Assembly (NCBI GenBank): GCA_039931165.1
Contig: JBDTSL010000005.1
Coordinates: forward strand, 1 to 58,830
Source of the DNA: Candidatus Doudnabacteria bacterium
Lineage (GTDB): Bacteria > Patescibacteriota > Doudnabacteria > UBA920 > O2-02-FULL-48-8
Reading direction: 5' to 3'
DNA: 58,830 nt
The notes beneath the pieces were generated by a model, which was not told where the DNA came from, made no database searches, and worked only from the letters and a program-made list of their open reading frames with translations. Below, piece after piece: positions 355-49,114 of the stretch. Position numbers and translations under genes: made by a program. The stretch's first letter is position 1. Every line of letters begins with the position of its first letter.

Positions 355-467
355 GACTAGTTCTGCTCTGCCTCAGCTGAGTTCAGGGTTAGGAACATCG
401 CAACACCGCACATAATACAGCTGGCCTAACGAAGTCTTAGTCCGGCGCCCCAAGGAGGGGTTTCAAA

Positions 468-1724
468 ATGCGTAAATTAGTATTGTCGGTCGTATTCATG
501 TTGACGTCGGTCGGCATCGCTTCGGCGCAAACGCCCGTTGACAGTTGGAAGACTGCGGCGGAATGCGTAGCGGCGCCCGAGGCGCCCTTCTACAGGCCCT
601 CGGTCGTAACTCCCCGCAGGCTCGGCAAAAACGAGATCATCCGCGGGCACCCGACGGGCGGGTGCTTCGAGATGAAGCTGCCGGACCGGATGAACAAACG
701 CGGGTTCGTTCGGATTGAACAAGGACGGGAATTCGTCTACAACTTCACGACGCGGAAAATTCTCCGCCTCGCTGAATGCAACAACGATGTTTTTGAATTC
801 TCTCCCTTCCTCACCAAAGAGGTCGCTCCTGCTCCCGCAATAAAGGGAGACAAGGGGGACACTGGCAAGCAGGGAGACAAAGGCGATAAGGGCGACAAGG
901 GCGAACCGGGTGCTCCGGCAATCCCAACCACCGTTAGCGACGAAACGTCTCCCGCTACGACCAAGCCAATCGTAGGGGTTGGCATCGGGTACGTGTTCGG
1001 GTCCGTCAATACGGACTTCACCTACCCTGACCCCAAGCGCGGCGATGTGCCCCAAAAGCACAAGTTCGCCGCTCCCGTTCTCACCGTACGAGTGGATCAG
1101 TCGGCTCACAAGGGAGCATTCGGCTCCGTGACTGCCTCCTTCCTCGGTAATACCTCGGACCAGCTGTACCAGGACCTGCAAGGGAACTGGCTCAGCAAGA
1201 AGCGCGATTCGGATACCAGCCGCGACAAACTGCTCCAGATCCGCGGCGGATATAAGCTCGCTGTCGGAGATGTGCTCAGCATCGGAGTCTCGCTTGACTT
1301 CGACCGGACGTGCTTCTGCGAAACATACTTCGCGCAGAACACGACCACCGTCACCGAAAGGTCTTTCCAGACCTATGGGGTTGGGGTCGAAGCTTCTGGT
1401 TCGACCAAGAGCGACGACCACCGGCTCACTGTTCGAGCTGGCGGAACACTAGGACTCGGTGGCTCACGAGACAAATGGACCACCCAGCACTACAACGGCG
1501 ACACCAAAACGCCGGCAATTGACTTCCCCAAGGTCACAGACGAGCAGGAGCAAGCCAAGCTCAATCGTCTCGGTGCCGACGTGGACGTTCAGGCGATCGG
1601 TCGTGTCCACGTTTTCGCAAACGTGTCGTGGTCGCACTACAAGTCAGTGCGTCCGACCTCCCACACAGCCCATGAATCGACGTCATCGATGGCGACAATC
1701 GTGGGTGTCAAGGTGAGCTTCTAG
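468..1724 (+). CDS. Secreted protein with a collagen-like G-X-Y linker and a C-terminal beta-barrel-like domain
   Basis: RBS aaggagggg; signal peptide ending ASA; GDKGDTGKQGDKGDKGDKGEPGAP; about 10 amphipathic strands; ends VGVKVSF. Confidence 0.8.
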   Translation: MRKLVLSVVFMLTSVGIASAQTPVDSWKTAAECVAAPEAPFYRPSVVTPRRLGKNEIIRGHPTGGCFEMKLPDRMNKRGFVRIEQGREFVYNFTTRKILRLAECNNDVFEFSPFLTKEVAPAPAIKGDKGDTGKQGDKGDKGDKGEPGAPAIPTTVSDETSPATTKPIVGVGIGYVFGSVNTDFTYPDPKRGDVPQKHKFAAPVLTVRVDQSAHKGAFGSVTASFLGNTSDQLYQDLQGNWLSKKRDSDTSRDKLLQIRGGYKLAVGDVLSIGVSLDFDRTCFCETYFAQNTTTVTERSFQTYGVGVEASGSTKSDDHRLTVRAGGTLGLGGSRDKWTTQHYNGDTKTPAIDFPKVTDEQEQAKLNRLGADVDVQAIGRVHVFANVSWSHYKSVRPTSHTAHESTSSMATIVGVKVSF

Positions 1725-3029: not shown

Positions 3030-4205
3030 ATGAAATTAAACTATTATCTGTTTGCTTCGGAGCAAAATAGCTATAAACCCTGGATTTTGACAACCCCGGC
3101 CTTGGTGCTTTTTTGCTTCGTCATCTGGGCCTTGCGCTTGCTTTTGCCCGGTATTTCAATCGCGGCTCCCGGGATAGATCCGCAGGATCTGATGACGAGG
3201 ATCAATGCCGAGAGGACCCAAAGATTTATTCCCGCGCTTATCACCTACAGTAAATTAATTACGGCCGCGACAGGCAAGGCTCAGGACATGATGGCGCGAA
3301 GTTACTTTGCCCACGTCGATCCGGACGGAAATTACGTATGGCCGCGGATCGAGGCTACCGGTTATAAACCTTATCTGACCTTGGGAGAAAATCTGGCAAT
3401 GGATTTTACTTCGGCGTCCGAAATGATGGCCGCGTGGATGAACAGCCCGGGGCACAGGGCGAATATCGAAAATGAAAAATTTGTAGACCAGGGGGTGTCC
3501 ACCATCTCCGGCACGTTTGAGCCGAACCACAATACGATCATCGCCGTCAGCCTTTTCGGCGCGCTTTATAATCCACCGCCGTCTCCGGTTGCCAAAACTT
3601 ACCCGACTCCGGTATATCAAACTCCCAAAATCATCAAACCTAAGCCAACGCCGGCGCTTCCGCCCGCTCCGGCTCCGCCCGAAAAATCAAGTTTAATTAT
3701 TTTCCCGGATATCAAAGTCAACACGACTGTCGTTTCCGGCAAAATATTGGTCAACTTGGATGTGGTCATCGGCGGAAATCCCTCGCTCGTTACATCCCGC
3801 CTCAAAACTCAATCCATAACCTTGGTTGCCGGCAAGCAGCCGGGAGAATTCGTCGGCTCTTTCACCTTTGACCAAACCGAGATCCTGGGCAGCCAGACGG
3901 TTTCGATCGAAGCCCGAGACAAAACCGGAGCCAAACTCGCGCAAGACTTCCGGATACGGATCGATGTTCCGGCTTTATCAGGAGCCGCGCAAGATTCGCT
4001 GGTTCCTATTCCCGTAACCAATGAAGCTGCGATTATCAAGGTGCTGAGGATCATATTCGGGATATTCGGGGCGATCTATGTCATTTTCCTGGTGATTGAC
4101 GCGGTTATCATCCACCGGGCGAAGATCAAAAGGACGGGAATTCATTCCTGGCCCCATCTTTTGGTTTTGTTGCTGATCGCCGCTATCACCCTGCTCGGCA
4201 GGTGA
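3030..4205 (+). CDS. CAP (SCP) domain protein with a Pro-rich linker and C-terminal TM helices
   Basis: INAER...KAQDM...YFAH...GENLA...WMNSPGHRANI. Confidence 0.9.
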   Translation: MKLNYYLFASEQNSYKPWILTTPALVLFCFVIWALRLLLPGISIAAPGIDPQDLMTRINAERTQRFIPALITYSKLITAATGKAQDMMARSYFAHVDPDGNYVWPRIEATGYKPYLTLGENLAMDFTSASEMMAAWMNSPGHRANIENEKFVDQGVSTISGTFEPNHNTIIAVSLFGALYNPPPSPVAKTYPTPVYQTPKIIKPKPTPALPPAPAPPEKSSLIIFPDIKVNTTVVSGKILVNLDVVIGGNPSLVTSRLKTQSITLVAGKQPGEFVGSFTFDQTEILGSQTVSIEARDKTGAKLAQDFRIRIDVPALSGAAQDSLVPIPVTNEAAIIKVLRIIFGIFGAIYVIFLVIDAVIIHRAKIKRTGIHSWPHLLVLLLIAAITLLGR

Positions 4206-4215
4206 TTTCCCTATA

Positions 4216-4337
4216 AGCGAGGATGCTGTACAAAAAAGAAATTGAGGCCGAAGCGGCTTAACCGCCGCGAGGCCGAAACTTAGGCAGAAATTTGCGTCCA
4301 GCAAATTTCTGCCGTCTTTTTTTGCGGCATCCGAGCG
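4216..4337. repeat. Palindromic element, family D (copy 1)
   Basis: Shares ttgaggccgaag and gccgtctttttttgcggYatccgag with 30661-30747; outer inverted repeat; lies between convergent genes. Confidence 0.75.
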
Positions 4338-4339
4338 AC

Positions 4340-5254
4340 CTATATCACTCGTTGGTTGAAATTATGTGTGGCTAATAAGATCGTGATCAGCAGCGCCATC
4401 ATCGCCAGGTATTCAAACACGACCACGCGCGATAGAGTTTTGTCCAGATGATTATGGAGCAGGCCCCAGAACATATTGTAAACCGCCAGCATCACCAGCC
4501 CGGCGGTAAAATATTCATAGTTCCAGAAACTATAGACCCAGAGCGATACGAGGCCCATGGCCAATGCGATGATCACGATCCAGATGAAAATCGAAAAGTT
4601 CAACAGATTGTGCTGGAACAATGCCTGGTAGATCAAAAGAAAGGTCACGGATGAAGCCGCGGTAAATAAAAAGAAAGCGTCATAGCCGAAATGTATGGTG
4701 ACCCCGACAATTGCGGAATAGATCAGAAATGCGGTAAATAATTTTACCACGGACAAGAGTCTGATCCAGTGGTGCAGGACTTCCATCCGCCGGCTGATCT
4801 GCTCTTTCATGAACCAATAGGCCACGGCTAAAGCAATGGTTGAAGACACAACCATAAACTGTTTTATGGTAATGTTGAATGGATTAAGCAAGATCAGCAC
4901 AACTGTTGACCAGTAGATCAATCCCGGCAAGACAAGATAATTTTGATAGTGCCGCAGATACTCCCATCGCCTGATGTGACTAAAGCGTTCTTTGAAAGCT
5001 TCCCAGACCATCTTGGCTCCTTTAAAGTTGACCGAAGCCTCTGCCAGCACTCCCCGCTTCTTCAAATGCAGATCAAATATGAATGTCAGCCAAAAAATAT
5101 GGAACGCGTAAACATAAAATGACAACAAAACGGCAATTTTAAGCTGATAAATGCCAGTGATATAGCTGACAGCTTCGAAACCCAAAAGCGCTCCAAAAGT
5201 GGCTATCGAAGCTGAAAGATATTTTTGGTGTTGTTCGCCGATCAAAGGTCTCAT
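4340..5254 (-). CDS. Polytopic membrane protein (DUF5656-like C-terminus, tentative)
   Basis: 304 aa with many hydrophobic helices; C-terminal half resembles 11595-12302. Confidence 0.7.
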   Translation of the reverse strand: MRPLIGEQHQKYLSASIATFGALLGFEAVSYITGIYQLKIAVLLSFYVYAFHIFWLTFIFDLHLKKRGVLAEASVNFKGAKMVWEAFKERFSHIRRWEYLRHYQNYLVLPGLIYWSTVVLILLNPFNITIKQFMVVSSTIALAVAYWFMKEQISRRMEVLHHWIRLLSVVKLFTAFLIYSAIVGVTIHFGYDAFFLFTAASSVTFLLIYQALFQHNLLNFSIFIWIVIIALAMGLVSLWVYSFWNYEYFTAGLVMLAVYNMFWGLLHNHLDKTLSRVVVFEYLAMMALLITILLATHNFNQRVI

Positions 5255-5340: not shown

Positions 5341-6102
5341 TTATTTTTCAAATTTTAGCAAATTCTTTTCATTCCGTTTCCCCAAGGCTTTGCGGGCCCA
5401 AAAAACCCCTGACCTGTAGAGACTTTCAAATGTTCCGGCGTCGGACCAGAATCCTTCAAGCCTAGCCCAGCGCATTTTTCCGTCTTCAATATATAGATTG
5501 TTGACATCCGTTATTTCCAGTTGGCCACGGCCGGATGGTTTGATTTTTTTTATGAGCTTGAAAACTTTGTTGTCAAAGATATAAAGCCCGGTCACGGCCA
5601 GGTTGCTTTTTGGCTTCTTGGGTTTTTCCTCAATACCTAAAATCCTGTTCGGATCGGTCTTATCCAACTTCGCTATGCCGAACCGATGAGGATCTTCCAC
5701 TTCCTTAAGAAACACCAGAGCTCCGTCTTTGAAATTTTGTACTTCTTTGCGGATGTTTGCATCAGTGCAATTATCCCCCAAAATAACCGTGACCGGTCCA
5801 TTATCGGCAAAACTTTCCGTAAGCCTCAGCGCGTCCGCGATACCGGCATCCCCAGAATCCTGATAGGCAAACTCCAGATGTTTGATCCCGAATTCCTTGC
5901 CATTTCTCAAAACCCGGATAAAATCTCCGGCATGCGGACCGCCGACCACGACCATGATGTTCGTGATCCCGGCCCGCAGCAGCGTGCGGATAGGATAATA
6001 AATCATCGGTTTATCGTAAACCGGCAATAAATGCTTGTTTGTGGCATGGGTCAAAGGATATAGCCTTGTTCCCAAGCCGCCCGCTAAAATAATGCCTTTC
6101 AT
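5341..6102 (-). CDS. rfbA: Glucose-1-phosphate thymidylyltransferase (short form)
   Basis: ILAGGLGTRLYPLT...KHLLPVYDKPMI; last gene of the rml cluster. Confidence 0.9.
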   Translation of the reverse strand: MKGIILAGGLGTRLYPLTHATNKHLLPVYDKPMIYYPIRTLLRAGITNIMVVVGGPHAGDFIRVLRNGKEFGIKHLEFAYQDSGDAGIADALRLTESFADNGPVTVILGDNCTDANIRKEVQNFKDGALVFLKEVEDPHRFGIAKLDKTDPNRILGIEEKPKKPKSNLAVTGLYIFDNKVFKLIKKIKPSGRGQLEITDVNNLYIEDGKMRWARLEGFWSDAGTFESLYRSGVFWARKALGKRNEKNLLKFEK

Positions 6103-6106
6103 AATT

Positions 6107-6934
6107 CTACCCTAAGTATTCTTTCAATGCTTCGGTCCAAGGCCTCAGCTGGATGAATTTATTGTTATTTAAAACCCCGTACTGGGGCCTGGCGGCTTTG
6201 CGAGGGAATTTGTCCCGTGATATGGCTGTTAATGTTACTTTCACATTCTTGATCTGAAATATTTCGTTCGCCCACTGATACCAGCTCGTCTGGCCGGCGT
6301 TAGTCAGATGATAAATTCCGAATGGTTTTTTTTCTTCAAGCAATGCTCTTGTGGATTGTGCCAGATCCAGGCAATATGTCGGCTGGGCAAATTCATCTTT
6401 GATCGCTTCGATGGCTTTGCCTTCATCAGCCTTCTTCAGCATCATGGCCACAAAGCTGGTTTTTCCATGACTTCCCGGCTTGCCATAAAGCCACGCCGTC
6501 CGGATGATATAAAACTTGTCGGTTTTCCCCTGAACCTCATTTTCACCTAAGATCTTTGATTTGCCGTATATTGAACGCGCGTTCGGCAGATCATCTTCAT
6601 TATATCCCTCTTGGTTCGTTCCATCAAAAACATAATGCGTGCTGAAATGGACAAAAACCGCGCCCACCTCAGATGCTGCTTTAGCCAAATAACCGGGCGC
6701 ATAGCCATTTACGGATTCGGCAAGCTCCCTTTCCTCTTCAGCCTTATCCACCGCGTTATATGCGGCGCAATTAATAACCAAACCGGGCTTCAATTCGGCA
6801 ATTTTTTTACTGACCACTTCTTCGTCGGTGATGTCAAGATCGAATTTGCCCCAGCCGACGACTTCCTGGTCTTTGTAAAGATCAAGGAAAGCCTCCCCCA
6901 AACTTCCTTTGGCTCCCAAAATCAAAATTTTCAT
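6107..6934 (-). CDS. rfbD: dTDP-4-dehydrorhamnose reductase
   Basis: GAKGSLG, NCAAYNAVDKAE, YGKSK. Confidence 0.93.
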   Translation of the reverse strand: MKILILGAKGSLGEAFLDLYKDQEVVGWGKFDLDITDEEVVSKKIAELKPGLVINCAAYNAVDKAEEERELAESVNGYAPGYLAKAASEVGAVFVHFSTHYVFDGTNQEGYNEDDLPNARSIYGKSKILGENEVQGKTDKFYIIRTAWLYGKPGSHGKTSFVAMMLKKADEGKAIEAIKDEFAQPTYCLDLAQSTRALLEEKKPFGIYHLTNAGQTSWYQWANEIFQIKNVKVTLTAISRDKFPRKAARPQYGVLNNNKFIQLRPWTEALKEYLG

Positions 6935-7488
6935 AAAGGTTTAACATCTTTCAGCATAGGGTGTTTCATGTCATTATCTGAAATGATGGCTTTATCCAAA
7001 GCAATGGGCCACTCAACCGACAGATCCGTATCCGCCAGATTCACGAATTTATATTCCGACAACTTTTCCGCGGACCAAAAATCATTTACCAAATAAGAAT
7101 AATAAGTTCCCTCCTCCAAGGTCTGGAAAGAATTTGCGACACCCCGGGGAACAAACGCGGTTTTGTTCTCGTCAATCGTCATTTCAACTTTTTTGCCGAA
7201 ATTGCCGCCCTTCCGCAGATCCACAAACACGGCAAATATCCGGCCGGTAATTATTCCGATATATTTCTCCCACGGTTCCGCGTGAAATCCGCGGGTAACG
7301 CCGACAGCCCTGTTGAAAGAAACGCTGTGCTGGACCGGCACAAAACCATTTGGAAATCCTGCGGCAACCAATTTTTCCCTCTGGTATTTTTCCTGAAACC
7401 AACCCCTAGAGTCTTCTATCATATTGACATCAATCTCCAAAAGTCCGGGAATTGCGGTATTGTTGATTTTAAATTCAGTGGTTTGCAT
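6931..7488 (-). CDS. rfbC: dTDP-4-dehydrorhamnose 3,5-epimerase
   Basis: DSRGWFQE, TRGFHAEPW, GVANSFQTL. Confidence 0.93.
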   Translation of the reverse strand: MQTTEFKINNTAIPGLLEIDVNMIEDSRGWFQEKYQREKLVAAGFPNGFVPVQHSVSFNRAVGVTRGFHAEPWEKYIGIITGRIFAVFVDLRKGGNFGKKVEMTIDENKTAFVPRGVANSFQTLEEGTYYSYLVNDFWSAEKLSEYKFVNLADTDLSVEWPIALDKAIISDNDMKHPMLKDVKPL

Positions 7489-7493
7489 AGGTT

Positions 7494-7556
7494 AGATTGC
7501 TTCGTCGGCTTCGCCTCCTCGCAAATGCGCATCTGCGAGCGAAGCGAAGCAGTCTA
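7494..7556. repeat. REP-like palindrome, family A (copy 2, two half-units)
   Basis: agattgcttcgtcggcttcgcctcctcgcaaatgcg followed by catctgcgagcgaagcgaagcagtcta, between rfbB and rfbC. Confidence 0.8.
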
Positions 7557-7564
7557 TCTAAGAT

Positions 7565-8542
7565 TTATATTGCGTCTGGTAATAATTTTTTCCACCAGGA
7601 TTCGTTTTTTTGATACCAGTCTATCGTATCTTTGATCCCTTTTTCAAAATCGATCTCCGGTTTCCAGCCAAGGTCTTTCTTGATTTTTGAACAATCGAGC
7701 AAATATCTTTTATCATGCTGGAGCCTGTCTGGAACATAAGTTTTTAAATTTTTATCTTCCCCCAGAATATCCAATATTTTATCGGCAATTTCTTCCACGG
7801 ATTTCTCAACTCCACTGCCAATATTATAGGATTCTCCGACCTTGCCTTTCTGCAAAATCAGATCAATTGCCGCGCAATGATCTTGAACATGCAGCCATTC
7901 ACGTTTATTCTGGCTGGTCTTAAACAAAGGCAAAGATTTGTTCTGGAGTGCATTTGTCGCAAACAGTGGGATTATTTTTTCCGGAAACTGGTAGGGGCCA
8001 TAATTGTTGCTGCAATGACTGATCGTAACAGGTAACTTATATGTATGGAAATAAGCCATTACCTCGTGATTTGCCCCGGCCTTAGAAGCGTTATAAGGGG
8101 TTTTGGGCAAGAACGGATCGGTTTCCTTGAATGCCCTGGTTTCGTCTAATTCCAGATCGCCGAATACCTCACATGTTGAAATATGATGAAAACGCTTAAC
8201 TTTAGCTTGCCTGGCCGCTTCCAAAAGAATCTGTGTCCCCAAAACATTAGTACGGACAAAAATTCCAGGATCCTCAATAGCCCGATCATTATGCGATTCC
8301 GCGGCAAAATTTACTACAACATCAACATCCTTCATTAGGTCTTTGGCCAAATTCAAATCACCTATGTCCCCTTTTATGAATTTATAGCGCGGATTTTGTT
8401 CATACAGTTTTACATTTTCCAGGTTGCCGGCATAGGTCAATTTGTCCAAATTTACAATTTCGCAATCAGGATATTTTTCAAAAAGAAAATGGATAAAATT
8501 GGAGCCAATAAACCCAGCCCCGCCGGTGATAAGATATTTCAT
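7565..8542 (-). CDS. rfbB: dTDP-glucose 4,6-dehydratase
   Basis: TGGAGFIGSNF, LDKLTYAGN, FAAESH, YNASK, REWLHVQDH. Confidence 0.93.
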   Translation of the reverse strand: MKYLITGGAGFIGSNFIHFLFEKYPDCEIVNLDKLTYAGNLENVKLYEQNPRYKFIKGDIGDLNLAKDLMKDVDVVVNFAAESHNDRAIEDPGIFVRTNVLGTQILLEAARQAKVKRFHHISTCEVFGDLELDETRAFKETDPFLPKTPYNASKAGANHEVMAYFHTYKLPVTISHCSNNYGPYQFPEKIIPLFATNALQNKSLPLFKTSQNKREWLHVQDHCAAIDLILQKGKVGESYNIGSGVEKSVEEIADKILDILGEDKNLKTYVPDRLQHDKRYLLDCSKIKKDLGWKPEIDFEKGIKDTIDWYQKNESWWKKLLPDAI

Positions 8543-10164
8543 ATTTTTTGCTTACTAAGATCAAAATTTTCCCATACTACGTACGCTTCTCCTGTGCTTT
8601 GAAATTCGGAATATTCGCCCTCGTCGACAAATGGAATTATTATTTGAACTTTTTTTTGCCCGCTACTGACAATATTAGCCATAACAGCCTTGCCAATATA
8701 GTCATAGTTAGAAATTAAATTTTCTTCTGTATTTACCGTAATATATTTAATGCCTTTCTCTTTCGCTTTCTCACCGAGGTATTGGAATAATTGCTCAGTT
8801 GCGCTTTCCCAATGGATCGTGGCCGGTATTTGAATAGCATCTAAGTGCCAGGCCTTTTCACCGGCATCAGTGTCCGTAATCAACAGATAAATATTGCCGA
8901 TGTGTTTTTGCTTGGATTCAAAAACCTTAACATTATAAACCGGGATTAGAGAATCGGCGAACGGCAATGGTTTCCCTTCGGTGCAATCACCGCTGATTTG
9001 TCCTGGATCCCTATCGAGTTCGGCGTTAGGAGTCGGATCCAAGTAAAACTCCTGTTTATTATCTCGGGTTATAAGAATGCGGAATGAAGCTTGTTCAATC
9101 TCTGATAAATATTTATCAAAGTAAGCCGCTACCACATTATAGGCTGTCAAAAATTGCTTAAGTTCGGAAATAAACAAATTTTCCTTGCGGCTCTGGATAT
9201 CCATTTCTTTTTTTCTTTTACTCAGGGCCTTTTTGTCTTCTATTGTCACAGCTTCACTCATTTGGGTTTCGATGTCTTTTTTTTCCTGAAAATGGGGGAA
9301 TTGCCGGCCTGAAATTTTCCCGGCCAATTCAGATGCTTCATCATAGGTTTTACACACGGAAATTTGTTCTCCCAGATGGACAAATCCTTTCTTAACCAGA
9401 AATAAGCCCAGGAAATGAATTTTCAGTTTTTCTTCATTATCAATTTCATGTTCAAAACAATATTGTAAAAATTCAGGTGTTATATGATTATCATGCTCCT
9501 CCTCAGACCATTCCTGAATAGTAGTTTCTCGGTCCCAATTAGTAAATTCTTTTTTTAAAGCGGCTTTATCAGCATACATGGCCTTGGCTCTTTGAATGTC
9601 TTCAAAAAAACTTTTTGATTCTTCAGGGTCATTTGCTTCTTGAATTTCGGACAGTTTATGCGCCAGCCCATCACTTAAGCCCAAATCTCTTTCCACGTCT
9701 CGTAAGTCACCGTCTCTTTTCAAAAAATGATCAGTCTGGGTATCAAACCAATTATTCCACTCGGTTATCTTTTGTTCGAAGAATTCTTGAGATTTCAGAA
9801 AGTCGTAGAATTCATTCGAAAAAGCTAAAATTGGATTATTTTTTCGCAAATTGCCTAAAAACCTTTCGTTGTTATAATTCTTATCAAGTTTACGCGCAAT
9901 ATCCAATTCGTGCCTTAGTTGGGCTTCAGTGGAATCCAGCTCAAGCTTGATTCGTCCAAAAGGGATATTTTCTTTCTTATTTTCTAAATTCGAACCTTGC
10001 TCAATTCTTTTTTCTAATTCGTCAGCTTTAACTATACTTCCTAGTGGATCGCGGGAATAACCCAGTGTAGCGAGTTCTTCGGAAGGAACATTTTTCAGCC
10101 CATATTTATTTACTAAATCCATAAGAGTTTGGGAGCCTGGATCAAATTTTTCTCGTTCTGCCAT
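8539..10164 (-). CDS. AT-rich hypothetical protein, helical N-terminus and possible GNAT-like C-terminus
   Basis: 541-aa ORF; stop overlaps the rfbB start (ATGA); visibly AT-richer than its neighbours. Confidence 0.75.
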   Translation of the reverse strand: MAEREKFDPGSQTLMDLVNKYGLKNVPSEELATLGYSRDPLGSIVKADELEKRIEQGSNLENKKENIPFGRIKLELDSTEAQLRHELDIARKLDKNYNNERFLGNLRKNNPILAFSNEFYDFLKSQEFFEQKITEWNNWFDTQTDHFLKRDGDLRDVERDLGLSDGLAHKLSEIQEANDPEESKSFFEDIQRAKAMYADKAALKKEFTNWDRETTIQEWSEEEHDNHITPEFLQYCFEHEIDNEEKLKIHFLGLFLVKKGFVHLGEQISVCKTYDEASELAGKISGRQFPHFQEKKDIETQMSEAVTIEDKKALSKRKKEMDIQSRKENLFISELKQFLTAYNVVAAYFDKYLSEIEQASFRILITRDNKQEFYLDPTPNAELDRDPGQISGDCTEGKPLPFADSLIPVYNVKVFESKQKHIGNIYLLITDTDAGEKAWHLDAIQIPATIHWESATEQLFQYLGEKAKEKGIKYITVNTEENLISNYDYIGKAVMANIVSSGQKKVQIIIPFVDEGEYSEFQSTGEAYVVWENFDLSKQKI

Positions 10165-25594: not shown

Positions 25595-25669
25595 TGGTGA
25601 CCCCACCGGGAATCGAACCCGGATTCTAGCGTTGAGAACGCTATGTCCTAACCGTTAGACGATAGGGCC
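25595..25669 (-). tRNA. tRNA-Glu (CTC)
   Basis: Cloverleaf; anticodon loop TT-CTC-AA; GGTTCGATTCC; encoded CCA; TTGAAT-17-TATAAT promoter at 25683-25711. Confidence 0.95.
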
Positions 25670-37068: not shown

Positions 37069-37082
37069 ATGATAATTTTGTT

Positions 37083-37192
37083 AATAAAAACCCGCTATCC
37101 AAAGACAACGGTTTGTTTCCAGATTCTAACTTCTAGATTCTAGCTTGTTCCTGCTTAGGCAATTAAGGCGTCTGCCACCTAAGGTCTTTGGC
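37083..37192 (-). promoter_or_regulatory. L10 leader-like cis-regulatory RNA
   Basis: ccaaagaccttaggtg...taattgcctaag, then a downstream gtctttgg inside a hairpin plus U run; resembles the L10 leader attenuator. Confidence 0.6.
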
Positions 37193-37249
37193 TTTATTAA
37201 ATTCCTGATCAGTATATTTGAATTACAGGGACTCGTCAAGGCCTTTTCA

Positions 37250-48470: not shown

Positions 48471-48587
48471 ATGGCTTTGGTTTCTTGTATAGAATAATTG
48501 CACGTTCATTATATCATAAATAGCAAATAAAAGTAAAATTCCAAAAAGGTTGAAAAATCAGTCCATTTCTGATAAAATTTGCGGTAT

Positions 48588-48661
48588 GCCCCCTTAGTTC
48601 AGTGGTAGAACAACAGTTTTGTAAACTGTAGGCGGTAGTTCGATTCTACCCGGGGGCTCCA
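48588..48661 (+). tRNA. tRNA-Thr (TGT)
   Basis: acagt-TT-TGT-AA-actgt arm; GTTCGATTC; encoded CCA; one acceptor-stem mismatch at 7-66. Confidence 0.88.
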
Positions 48662-48679
48662 GTAAGGTTTCAGTAAGTA

Positions 48680-48790
48680 CAAAATCAAATGCCGCGGAGG
48701 GTTAGGCAAGCATTTGATTTTGAGAGGAGCAACGCAGAAACCGTAGCGGCCTTGAATTGACGAAAGGACGCGAAGGTTTCGCAGTTGCGA
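48680..48790 (+). other. Structured spacer between tRNA-Thr and tRNA-Tyr
   Basis: 13-bp stem caaaatcaaatgc/gcatttgattttg plus an irregular hairpin gcaac..gaaacc..gcg..cctt/aagg..cgc..ggtttc..gttgc. Confidence 0.55.
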
Positions 48791-48795
48791 CGAGA

Positions 48796-48882
48796 GGGCA
48801 GGTAGCGAAGTGGTCAAACGCGGCTGACTGTAAATCAGCTGGCCTTGCGCCTTCATAGGTTCGAATCCTATCCTGCCCACCA
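48796..48882 (+). tRNA. tRNA-Tyr (GTA)
   Basis: gctga-CT-GTA-AA-tcagc arm; long variable arm; GGTTCGAATCC; encoded CCA. Confidence 0.95.
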
Positions 48883-48922
48883 GAAAAAAACTTTTGGCTT
48901 TTTGCCAAAGGTTTTTTTCTTT

Positions 48923-49071
48923 AGGATAGGATTCGAACGGGCAGCAGCGAGACGAGGCATCAGCCGAAGTCGAGCGCCGATGAAAGCGAGCGCTCGCAGC
49001 TTTCAGCGCTGCCCCGTACATGAGCGCATCAGCGCGAATCGAGAATCCTATCCTGCCCACCAGAAAAAAAC
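48923..49071 (+). mobile_element. tRNA-linked structured mini-element (tRNA-Tyr copy)
   Basis: 16-nt inverted copy of the T arm (48923-48938); 104-nt core; 29-bp direct repeat 49043-49071 = 48863-48891; terminator hairpins on both sides. Confidence 0.8.
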
Positions 49072-49114
49072 CTTCATCTTCTGATGAAGGTTTTTTTATT
49101 CCACTTACTATTTT

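Follow-up and report, generated by a model that had tools for sequence, protein, structure and literature searches.

Two tRNA genes in the window, by which we mean the whole 58.8-kb stretch of DNA analysed here, are followed by a structured module whose flanks carry an inverted and a direct copy of part of the gene ahead of it. The two modules belong to a sequence family of Candidatus Doudnabacteria that is absent from Rfam 15, and we found no description of it in the literature searched. In Candidatus Doudnabacteria the element is probably the counterpart of the tRNA-linked repeat (TLR) or RtT RNA of E. coli, that is, a read-through trailer RNA with a 3' end that mimics the end of a tRNA, spread by duplicative insertion.

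Anatomy of the two copies in the window

The first copy follows tRNA-Tyr(GUA) (48796-48882, plus strand), which forms a unit with tRNA-Thr(UGU) as the first gene (48588-48661, plus strand); both were called with ARAGORN. In a promoter scan, the only plus-strand promoter-like site near the locus lies upstream of tRNA-Thr (TTGAAA-17-TAAAAT, TG-extended; 48550-48578), and there is none within the element. The locus is flanked by genes for a response regulator and a TPR protein; homologues of the latter are named Candidatus Doudnabacteria, which assigns the window to the CPR/Patescibacteria. One Logan short-read contig with the tRNA-Tyr locus stops within the element.

The sequence-only reading of this locus had laid out, behind the tRNA, a terminator, a 16-nt inverted copy of the T arm, a core region of 104 nt, a 29-nt direct copy of the tRNA end and a second terminator. 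Each of these parts is in place, all on the plus strand. Terminator T1 (48884-48918), recognised from its sequence and repeats, consists of an A tract, an 8-bp stem (cttttggc/gccaaagg) and a T tract, and is a diverged duplicate of terminator T2 (49064-49097), for which a repeat search found perfect 15-nt arms. The inverted copy (IR), aggataggattcgaac, occupies 48923-48938 and is complementary at 16 of 16 positions to tRNA-Tyr 48859-48874 (G53 to U68), a segment that covers the T loop, the 3' strand of the T stem and 3 nt of the acceptor strand. It adjoins a Y-shaped core of 78 nt (48939-49016), for which folding, alignment and a covariance model give a closing stem, GGGCAG/CUGCCC, and two hairpins, P2 and P3. 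A small GC hairpin, P4 (GAGCGC-AUCA-GCGC; 49022-49035), visible in the fold and the alignment, and a linker, GAAUCGA, bring the core region to its 104 nt, ending at 49042. The direct copy (DR), gaatcctatcctgcccaccagaaaaaaac (49043-49071), is identical over 29 nt to the first copy at the tRNA-Tyr 3' end (48863-48891; repeat search), which comprises tRNA-Tyr positions 57-76 and 9 nt of trailer. By analogy with E. coli rttR, the CCA at 49060-49062 is the predicted 3' end of a released RNA.

About 160 nt of non-coding sequence separate the two direct repeats. Chance is excluded as a source of this arrangement: in a span of 250 nt, a perfect inverted repeat of 16 nt together with a direct repeat of 29 nt has a negligible expectation. 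Similarity between the direct copies extends beyond the 29 identical nucleotides that begin at 49043, to 80% over 55 nt with the terminator included, so that the duplication originally took in the terminator. Because the repeat continues into the terminator, the duplication would have been a DNA-level event; a retro-copy of the mature tRNA as the source of DR is disfavoured by the same continuation, seen in the window and at E. coli lysQ. IR also pairs with the start of DR (49043-49054, 12 bp), but its complementarity to the upstream tRNA takes in positions 53-68 and that to the direct copy only 57-68.

The second copy follows tRNA-Glu(CUC) (25595-25669, minus strand, ARAGORN), upstream of which the promoter scan placed a promoter-like site (25711-25683, minus strand). 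Sequence comparison identifies, on the same strand, an inverted copy of the tRNA-Glu T loop, ggaatcgaa (25570-25562), and a direct copy, cgattcccggtggggtcacca (25458-25438), equal to the last 21 nt of tRNA-Glu. Between them lie a 78-nt core of subfamily B (25561-25484), supported by sequence, fold and covariance model, and a hairpin P4 (25478-25463), read from the sequence, 5' of the direct copy. The order is that seen behind tRNA-Tyr but without T1. At both loci promoter-like sites stand solely upstream of the tRNAs, and the element lies upstream of T2. The outer helix between IR and DR measures 12 bp in the Tyr copy and 7 bp in the Glu copy, leaving single-stranded tails of 8 and 14 nt, and the fold z-scores are -5.0 and -2.2, respectively.

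The two cores had been proposed to be homologous, and this is borne out: they are 78% identical in an ungapped alignment, and a covariance model (R1) built from 17 family members scores 143 bits on the Tyr copy and 110 bits on the Glu copy. The next-best score of R1 in the 58.8-kb window is 11 bits, and the model finds no third copy there. The two compensatory changes that had been pointed out in the inner stem are present (U-A vs C-G and A-U vs U-A), as is covariation of the terminal hairpin (GCGC/GCGC vs CCGC/GCGG). That no recombinase is encoded in the window holds at the level of Pfam, since none of the 38 larger ORFs matches a recombinase, transposase or reverse transcriptase, but 10 of the 38 have no Pfam match at all.

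A family behind tRNA and tmRNA genes

A degenerate pattern that fitted all four cores then known, run on metagenome contigs, returned 35 loci; 25 are true members and 10 are GC-rich coding false positives. The metagenome members were later confirmed by covariance model, and syntenic loci supplied two further copies. Every family locus that can be placed taxonomically belongs to Candidatus Doudnabacteria, including contig Ga0155206_111, which carries both an Asn-linked and a tmRNA-linked copy and is assigned by its ArgS. A pattern scan of genome contigs gave no family member among the matches listed (at least 119 loci), and two pattern scans of viral contigs gave nothing relevant. The three-block pattern used on genome contigs instead matched the reverse complement of tRNA-Phe in at least 108 or so Geodermatophilaceae genomes. 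With the 4227 models of Rfam 15 at gathering thresholds, only tRNAs and the L10 leader were matched in the window; permissive Rfam scans of the element gave terminator-type noise and weak RtT and chrB-a matches only. A self-cleaving ribozyme or other catalogued RNA was set aside, there being no Rfam match.

The expectation that the family reaches different tRNAs was well founded. Its hosts are of 11 kinds, namely the genes for tRNA-Tyr, Glu, Pro(CGG), Val(CAC), Asp, Lys(CUU), Ala(GGC), Asn, Gly(GCC) and Trp, ten tRNA kinds, and tmRNA; one non-tRNA site is occupied in addition (L144). The modules are non-coding, measure about 105-180 nt, have no promoter of their own and sit in the 3' trailer of the tRNA or tmRNA. 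This same-strand downstream placement applies to both window copies and to all members with a callable upstream tRNA or tmRNA; L144 is the exception, and in one copy (L156/L157) the upstream gene could not be called. The same 78-nt core, uniform in length and boundaries, recurs across all 11 kinds of host gene, and no tandem arrays of modules were seen.

In nearly all copies the flanks derive from the host gene, as the sequence-only reading had claimed for the two in the window. IR, 6-16 nt long and only 6-10 nt in many copies, is the reverse complement of the host T loop and the 3' strand of the T stem, and it adjoins the core in most copies (exceptions, L143 and L160). An intact DR equals the last 19-21 nt of the host, or 26 nt for tmRNA. 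Some copies, L149, L159 and L160 among them, have an extra hairpin that breaks the direct copy, and L125 and L142 are truncated remnants. Two loci depart from the rule that members adjoin a tRNA and carry its sequence. L144 has the standard layout at its non-tRNA site, where direct copies have diverged to 26/32 and IR matches the upstream copy at 14/14 positions and the downstream copy less well. At L159 the flanks match a tRNA-Asn allele found in L149, not the diverged tRNA-Asn next to them. The flanks are thus historical copies, not continuously re-tailored ones. The earlier idea of re-tailoring to each tRNA stands insofar as the flanks are copied from the host, but they are not kept tailored over time.

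The consensus structure was derived with RNAalifold from an alignment of 17 distinct copies (A2), to which the outer IR/DR helix was added by hand before pairs were counted. It comprises the closing stem, an irregular hairpin P2, a long hairpin P3 and the small hairpin P4. In this structure 95.2% of the paired cells can pair, versus 33-41% in controls whose 3' partners were slid by 1-3 columns; two-sided changes occur at 15 pairs (3-6 in the slid controls), and the covariation score is 0.338 (controls, 0.04-0.08). The covariation noticed between the two window copies extends to the family. Linked double changes in P2 separate two subfamilies, with GCGAGAC...GUCGAGCG in one and GUGAGGC...GCCGAACG in the other. 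Such covariation fits folded single-stranded DNA equally well as RNA. Read on the tRNA strand, the core helices have more G-U than A-C pairs (7 to 3), a weak hint that this strand is the one that folds. The closing stem GGGCAG/CUGCCC is also the acceptor stem of tRNA-Tyr, which we treat as a coincidence or a hint of origin only. We rejected the core as a degenerate tRNA, since the stem is common to most copies at other tRNAs; a tRNA covariance model finds no match in the core.

We compared the syntenic locus (S2 / EF-Ts / TPR / tRNA-Thr / tRNA-Tyr / response regulator) in relatives. The tRNA-Tyr site is filled in the window, in L127 with a full element, in L139 with a short one that has the closing stem and P2 without P3, and in L172. 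It is empty in L130, L134 and L135, where the tRNA and terminator stand alone. The closest relative, L125 (79% TPR identity), has a remnant, gggattcgaacgggttgaa, and then an unrelated gene. The tRNA-Trp site is filled in L160: beyond its DR comes taagcagtcgtttttt..., which in the window stands immediately behind tRNA-Trp, so that the window has an empty Trp site where L160 has a filled one. The filled tRNA-Tyr sites hold cores of different subfamilies, A in the window and L172 and B in L127 and L139, and the nearest cores to that of the window Tyr copy are L156 (89%) and a tmRNA-linked copy (84%). Core similarity does not track tRNA identity, and a core is sometimes closer to one at another tRNA than to those at its own. 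This mismatch and the filled and empty sites together argue for repeated gain, replacement or gene conversion of modules rather than simple vertical descent. Presence and absence alone do not amount to proof of insertion, as precise loss by recombination between the direct copies would also give empty sites.

Two loci raised other possibilities that we rejected. At L151 the 5' part of a tRNA-Pro is joined to the module, which could suggest a T-loop intron or a split tRNA; against L140 the difference is a 52-nt deletion between TGGG microhomologies, and the L151 tRNA-Pro is most likely a dead gene. At L125 the gene that replaces the module encodes 468 aa and was considered as an autonomous long version, a kind that the sequence-only reading had suggested looking for. 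It has no recombinase match, and its sole Pfam match is a weak one to pseudopilin.

Comparison with the tRNA-linked repeats of E. coli

Knowledge of TLRs in E. coli goes back to 1978 (Egan and Landy 1978; Bosl and Kersten 1991; Rudd 1999; all as cited in PMC8144298). [quoted passage not shown] They were without known function according to a 2021 study, an earlier claim of a role for RtT in the stringent response having been retracted (PMC8144298). Three TLRs, RrA, RrB and RrF, lie between terminators T1 and T2 of rrnA, rrnB and rrnD; they too are read through and processed, and they bind Hfq and CsrA via GGA motifs (PMC8144298).

In our own inspection of the E. coli sequences, each RtT unit of tyrT-tyrV-rttR begins with GGGGAAGGAU, the reverse complement of tRNA-Tyr positions 59-68, continues with a GC-rich multi-branched interior and ends with AAUCCUUCCCCCACCACCA, the last 19 nt of tRNA-Tyr. 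The annotated rttR RNA is 171 nt long, and its 3' end falls exactly at the CCA of its direct copy. The consensus structure of RF00391 closes with the helix between IR and DR, as in the Candidatus Doudnabacteria element. This model gives 47-137 bits for the Tyr and Lys TLRs of E. coli, with 47-60 bits for the five in the lysT operon, which have tRNA-Lys flanks. At lysQ, the tRNA-Lys T arm recurs in reverse complement as gattcgaacctgc, and the terminator falls within a direct repeat of 54 bp, so that this TLR lies between two terminator copies like the window Tyr copy. In the rrnB TLR ggatttgaac, the reverse complement of a T-loop sequence, stands ahead of the GC hairpins, and TLRs in E. coli also follow 5S rRNA, which has no T arm. 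The tyrU-glyT spacer, which we had taken to be RtT-like, was dropped from the comparison, there being no tRNA-end copy in its sequence.

The Candidatus Doudnabacteria modules resemble the TLRs in many respects. Both occupy the tRNA strand of tRNA operons, in the 3' trailer or a spacer. Each ends in 18-21 nt that repeat the 3' end of the gene ahead, from T-loop position 57-59 on, and a 5' segment complementary to the 3' strand of the T stem and the start of the acceptor pairs with this copy, closing a GC-rich multi-branched fold. The 5' segment of both Tyr copies reaches tRNA position 68 and leaves an 8-nt tail, ...ACCA. The motif UCGAG immediately precedes the direct copy, several copies of the module occur at different tRNAs, each flanked by host-matching sequence, and placement between duplicated terminators is possible (lysQ, rrnB T1/T2). 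In RrA, RrB and RrF the succession of gene, T1, structured module, copy of the gene 3' end and T2 is that of the window tRNA-Tyr locus, except that the host gene is 5S rRNA. The two groups differ in core sequence and fold, which in Candidatus Doudnabacteria is Y-shaped, closed by GGGCAG/CUGCCC and joined by P4, and in phylogenetic setting (a CPR bacterium versus Enterobacterales). Only the Candidatus Doudnabacteria family occupies tmRNA and a non-tRNA site, and no tandem arrays were seen in it.

Measured against the definition of a TLR, the window copies lie at the 3' side of stable RNA genes, share 29 nt (Tyr) and 21 nt (Glu) with the host 3' end where 18-19 bp are required, and occupy several stable-RNA loci of one genome (two in the window). 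They also follow the structural plan of RF00391, with an outer helix, enclosed hairpins and a ...CCA tail. The sequence-only reading had left room for a match to a catalogued motif, and half of such a match was found: the architecture is that of the E. coli TLR/RtT (RF00391, PMC8144298), but the sequence of the Tyr element gives a permissive RF00391 match of only 13 bits (E = 5, cut-off 45). In that match model positions 1-130 align with 48910-49062, and the alignment stops exactly at the CCA of the Tyr direct copy; RF00391 does not match the Glu copy. Conversely, R1 scores 5-6 bits on E. coli TLRs, yet at the correct coordinates, and local alignments to them are marginal against shuffled controls (p 0.015-0.2), a shared 13-mer, AGACGAAGTCGAG, included. 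Homology to E. coli TLRs is not demonstrable, as the reciprocal covariance-model and shuffled local-alignment tests were all marginal. Since the TLR features readable from sequence are all present and sequence homology is not shown, we file the element, on its sequence, as a new family of the TLR kind outside RF00391.

Expression, origin and alternative explanations

The E. coli TLRs suggest how the module is most likely expressed. RNA polymerase would read through the tRNA, and through T1 where it is present, and the transcript would fold into a multi-branched structure, closed by a helix in which the inverted T-arm copy pairs with the first part of the direct tRNA copy. The direct copy, ending in ...ACCA, would give the RNA tRNA-like 3' processing signals, which would lead to release of a discrete, exonuclease-resistant RNA (about 48890-49062 for the Tyr copy) protected by the closing helix. 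We infer an RNA product of the window copies from this analogy. T1 looks competent as a terminator, and read-through may be low; the extra hairpin in DR of L149, L159 and L160 would be unexpected if an intact tRNA-like 3' end were essential. 3'ETS-leuZ (as cited in PMC8144298) is likewise a stable RNA that normal tRNA processing frees from the 3' external spacer of its operon, as may happen in Candidatus Doudnabacteria, but it lacks both the direct copy of the tRNA 3' end and the inverted one and forms no repeat family.

We propose that the modules entered their sites at the T loop by duplicative insertion, with copying of the tRNA 3' end and terminator, and that unequal exchange, gene conversion or template switching may then have spread them. 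The near-universal, partly palindromic T-loop sequence GTTCGAAUC could aid this spread by offering homology in both orientations. Because of this two-way homology, and because IR best matches the upstream copy, template switching or gene conversion is plausible, if speculative, as a route for spread and for the matching of flanks. We rejected a MITE, as the inverted segment is host-derived and differs at each site, and the duplication measures 19-55 nt versus the 2-10 bp expected.

A direct repeat of a tRNA 3' end that starts in the T loop is the usual footprint of tRNA-targeting tyrosine integrases, which also use tmRNA as a target. The element could thus be a non-autonomous one that moves as folded single-stranded DNA, like integron attC cassettes or CTX phage, with IR and DR forming a double-stranded T-arm mimic on which a tyrosine recombinase encoded elsewhere acts, and with the core as a variable terminal structure. 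We consider this unlikely. Two terminal direct copies with one inverted copy just inside one end are the product of integration of a hairpin by single-strand exchange, integrases classically target the T loops of tRNA and of tmRNA, the latter a host in this family, orthologous sites are filled or empty, and the covariation would be the same for single-stranded DNA. The IR end, ...GAAC, and the T-loop start, GTTC, loosely resemble R''/R' boxes; of the attC core sites RYYYAAC / GTTRRRY, only the AAC/GTT triplets fit by eye, and no integrase was found. Like attL/attR pairs, the Candidatus Doudnabacteria repeats start in the T loop, include tmRNA as a target and are present or absent at orthologous sites, but they enclose about 160 nt with neither integrase nor cargo, an inverted copy and a covarying core. 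With a length of 55 nt here and 54 bp at E. coli lysQ, terminator included, the repeat does not resemble a short crossover core, and the element always lies downstream of the gene on the transcribed strand. E. coli TLRs that follow 5S rRNA do so without a T arm, and the perfect IR match to the upstream copy at L144, with a poorer one downstream, also speaks against such movement, as do the scanned window ORFs and the L125 468-aa gene, none of which matches a recombinase. The sequence-only reading had favoured a non-autonomous family with the enzyme supplied in trans; the element indeed contains no enzyme, but nothing points to a trans-acting enzyme, a tyrosine integrase or a single-stranded DNA intermediate.

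Alternatively, the trailer could tune tRNA folding, maturation or decay in cis, as a processing or attenuation device in which IR has two alternative partners, the T arm of the pre-tRNA ahead of it (16 bp) and the downstream copy as a decoy (12 bp). The element and tRNA share one transcription unit, IR is complementary to more of the upstream tRNA (53-68) than of DR (57-68), and the IR of L144 is the perfect complement of its upstream copy. Such a switch seems improbable to us, as it would have no need of a covarying Y-shaped core and P4, most transcripts would stop before IR where T1 exists, IR is merely 6-10 nt long in many copies, and orthologous tRNAs fare well without the element.

That the modules are inert attL/attR scars of decayed genomic islands or prophages in tRNA genes is disfavoured and in our view very improbable: the T-loop-starting repeats are what integrases usually leave and truncated remnants occur (L125, L142), but the 78-nt core is uniform at 11 kinds of host gene, compensatory changes are strong, direct copies are perfectly conserved and no coding remnants lie between the repeats. 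We likewise rejected duplication of an att site by an island or prophage at the tRNA-Tyr locus, where the Pfam search gave no recombinase between or beside the repeats and the neighbours are the response regulator and the TPR protein.

On the preferred reading, as a counterpart of the TLR/RtT RNAs, these modules extend an architecture that is unexplained in E. coli to a distant CPR lineage with a minimal genome. The strong covariation, at least 11 host kinds, and filled and empty sites in a CPR bacterium indicate that the design of tRNA-end copy, inverted T-arm copy and core is under selection and is not an accident of one lineage. For annotation, such repeats break assemblies and can be mistaken for integration scars. 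The Candidatus Doudnabacteria family has enough sequence diversity for comparative structure work, and with it the origin of host-matched flanks becomes testable. It is possible, though we hold it doubtful, that TLRs are a widespread ancient class of structured modules that colonise the 3' ends of stable RNA genes, spread by a copying process that duplicates the target 3' end and writes an inverted copy, perhaps through template switching at the palindromic T-loop sequence or an unrecognised enzyme. If this were true, the Candidatus Doudnabacteria family would be the first tractable comparative set for both the mechanism and the function of the RNA.

The tRNA-Thr/tRNA-Tyr block and its spacer

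The block formed by tRNA-Thr, tRNA-Tyr and the element (48588-49097) is flanked in the window by the TPR gene and the response-regulator gene, and its orientation is opposite to theirs. This block is an inversion polymorphism. The inverted orientation is found in the window and in one syntenic relative (L130); in the other five relatives (L125, L127, L134, L135 and L139) the block is co-directional with the TPR gene. The exact TPR gene of the window is present in only one other assembly, a 2141-nt Logan contig from SRR26386588 (L124). That contig breaks within the element, at the end of the terminator T1, which is consistent with the assembly having failed where the tRNA end and the terminator are duplicated.

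The two tRNA genes of the window are separated by a structured spacer of 134 nt (48662-48795). Positions 48680-48722 form a hairpin with a perfect 13-bp stem, and the spacer also has a second GC-rich fold. The 3' end of tRNA-Thr is not copied in this spacer, which is therefore not a tRNA-linked repeat (TLR). Spacers close to this length (~130 nt) occur in L125 and L130, and the L125 spacer has sequence motifs in common with that of the window. The gap between the tRNA genes is just 7 nt in L127 and 1 nt in L139, leaving no structured spacer, and a different hairpin of 43 nt replaces the window-type spacer in L134 and L135.

Look-alikes and other features

In L126, a relative whose tRNA-Tyr differs in sequence, another GC-rich structured stretch of ~190 nt lies behind that gene (4202-4390). 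It is closed by the stem gacttcgcc/ggcgaagtc, and over its length we find neither a copy of the tRNA end nor similarity to the element family. The P2 region of the element (window 48953-48995; CGAGGCAUCAGCCGAAG-UCG) bears a weak resemblance, probably due to chance, to a portion of the chrB-a motif in Rfam (15 bits, E = 1.3).

Elsewhere in the window, an ordinary ribosomal protein L10 leader lies upstream of rplJ-rplL (37076-37209, minus strand; RF00557, 49.7 bits). A Doudnabacteria locus, L174, encodes an isoleucyl-tRNA synthetase of 1124 aa (5359-8733) with a histidine-phosphatase or phosphoglycerate-mutase-like domain inserted at residues ~490-650 (NCBIfam, E 1e-20 to 1e-26).

Unusual family members, with and without a tRNA gene

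At metagenome locus L151 (~400-560, minus strand), a tRNA-Pro(CGG) lacks its T arm and 3' end; its 5' two-thirds are joined directly to the inverted copy, core and direct copy of a family member, so that it looks as if 100 nt had been inserted into the T loop of a tRNA. Comparison with L140 shows that a 52-nt deletion between TGGG microhomologies explains this fusion. ARAGORN makes no call on the remnant, which is probably a dead gene.

Asn-linked and Trp-linked copies differ in another way: their direct copy of the tRNA 3' end is split by an extra hairpin of 23-53 nt, which lies between the 3' strand of the T stem and the acceptor strand (L149 ~6950-7020, minus strand; L159 ~290-340; L160 ~1625-1665). 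The insert in L149 holds a stretch resembling the D arm of tRNA-Asn (ccgtagctca..agagcg).

Two copies lack a recognized tRNA gene. One, present in both L156 (1-180) and L157 (1800-1985), is preceded by a structured, GC-rich region whose last bases read ...acaccgcca and in which ARAGORN calls no tRNA. The direct copy of this family member, gaatcccactctctccgcca, resembles a tRNA 3' end for which no intact gene lies nearby. The other occupies an AT-rich intergenic, non-tRNA site (L144, 9591-9760, minus strand) and follows the same logic as at tRNA sites, with a duplication of ~32 nt (copies identical at 26/32 positions) and a 14-nt inverted copy that matches the upstream copy perfectly.
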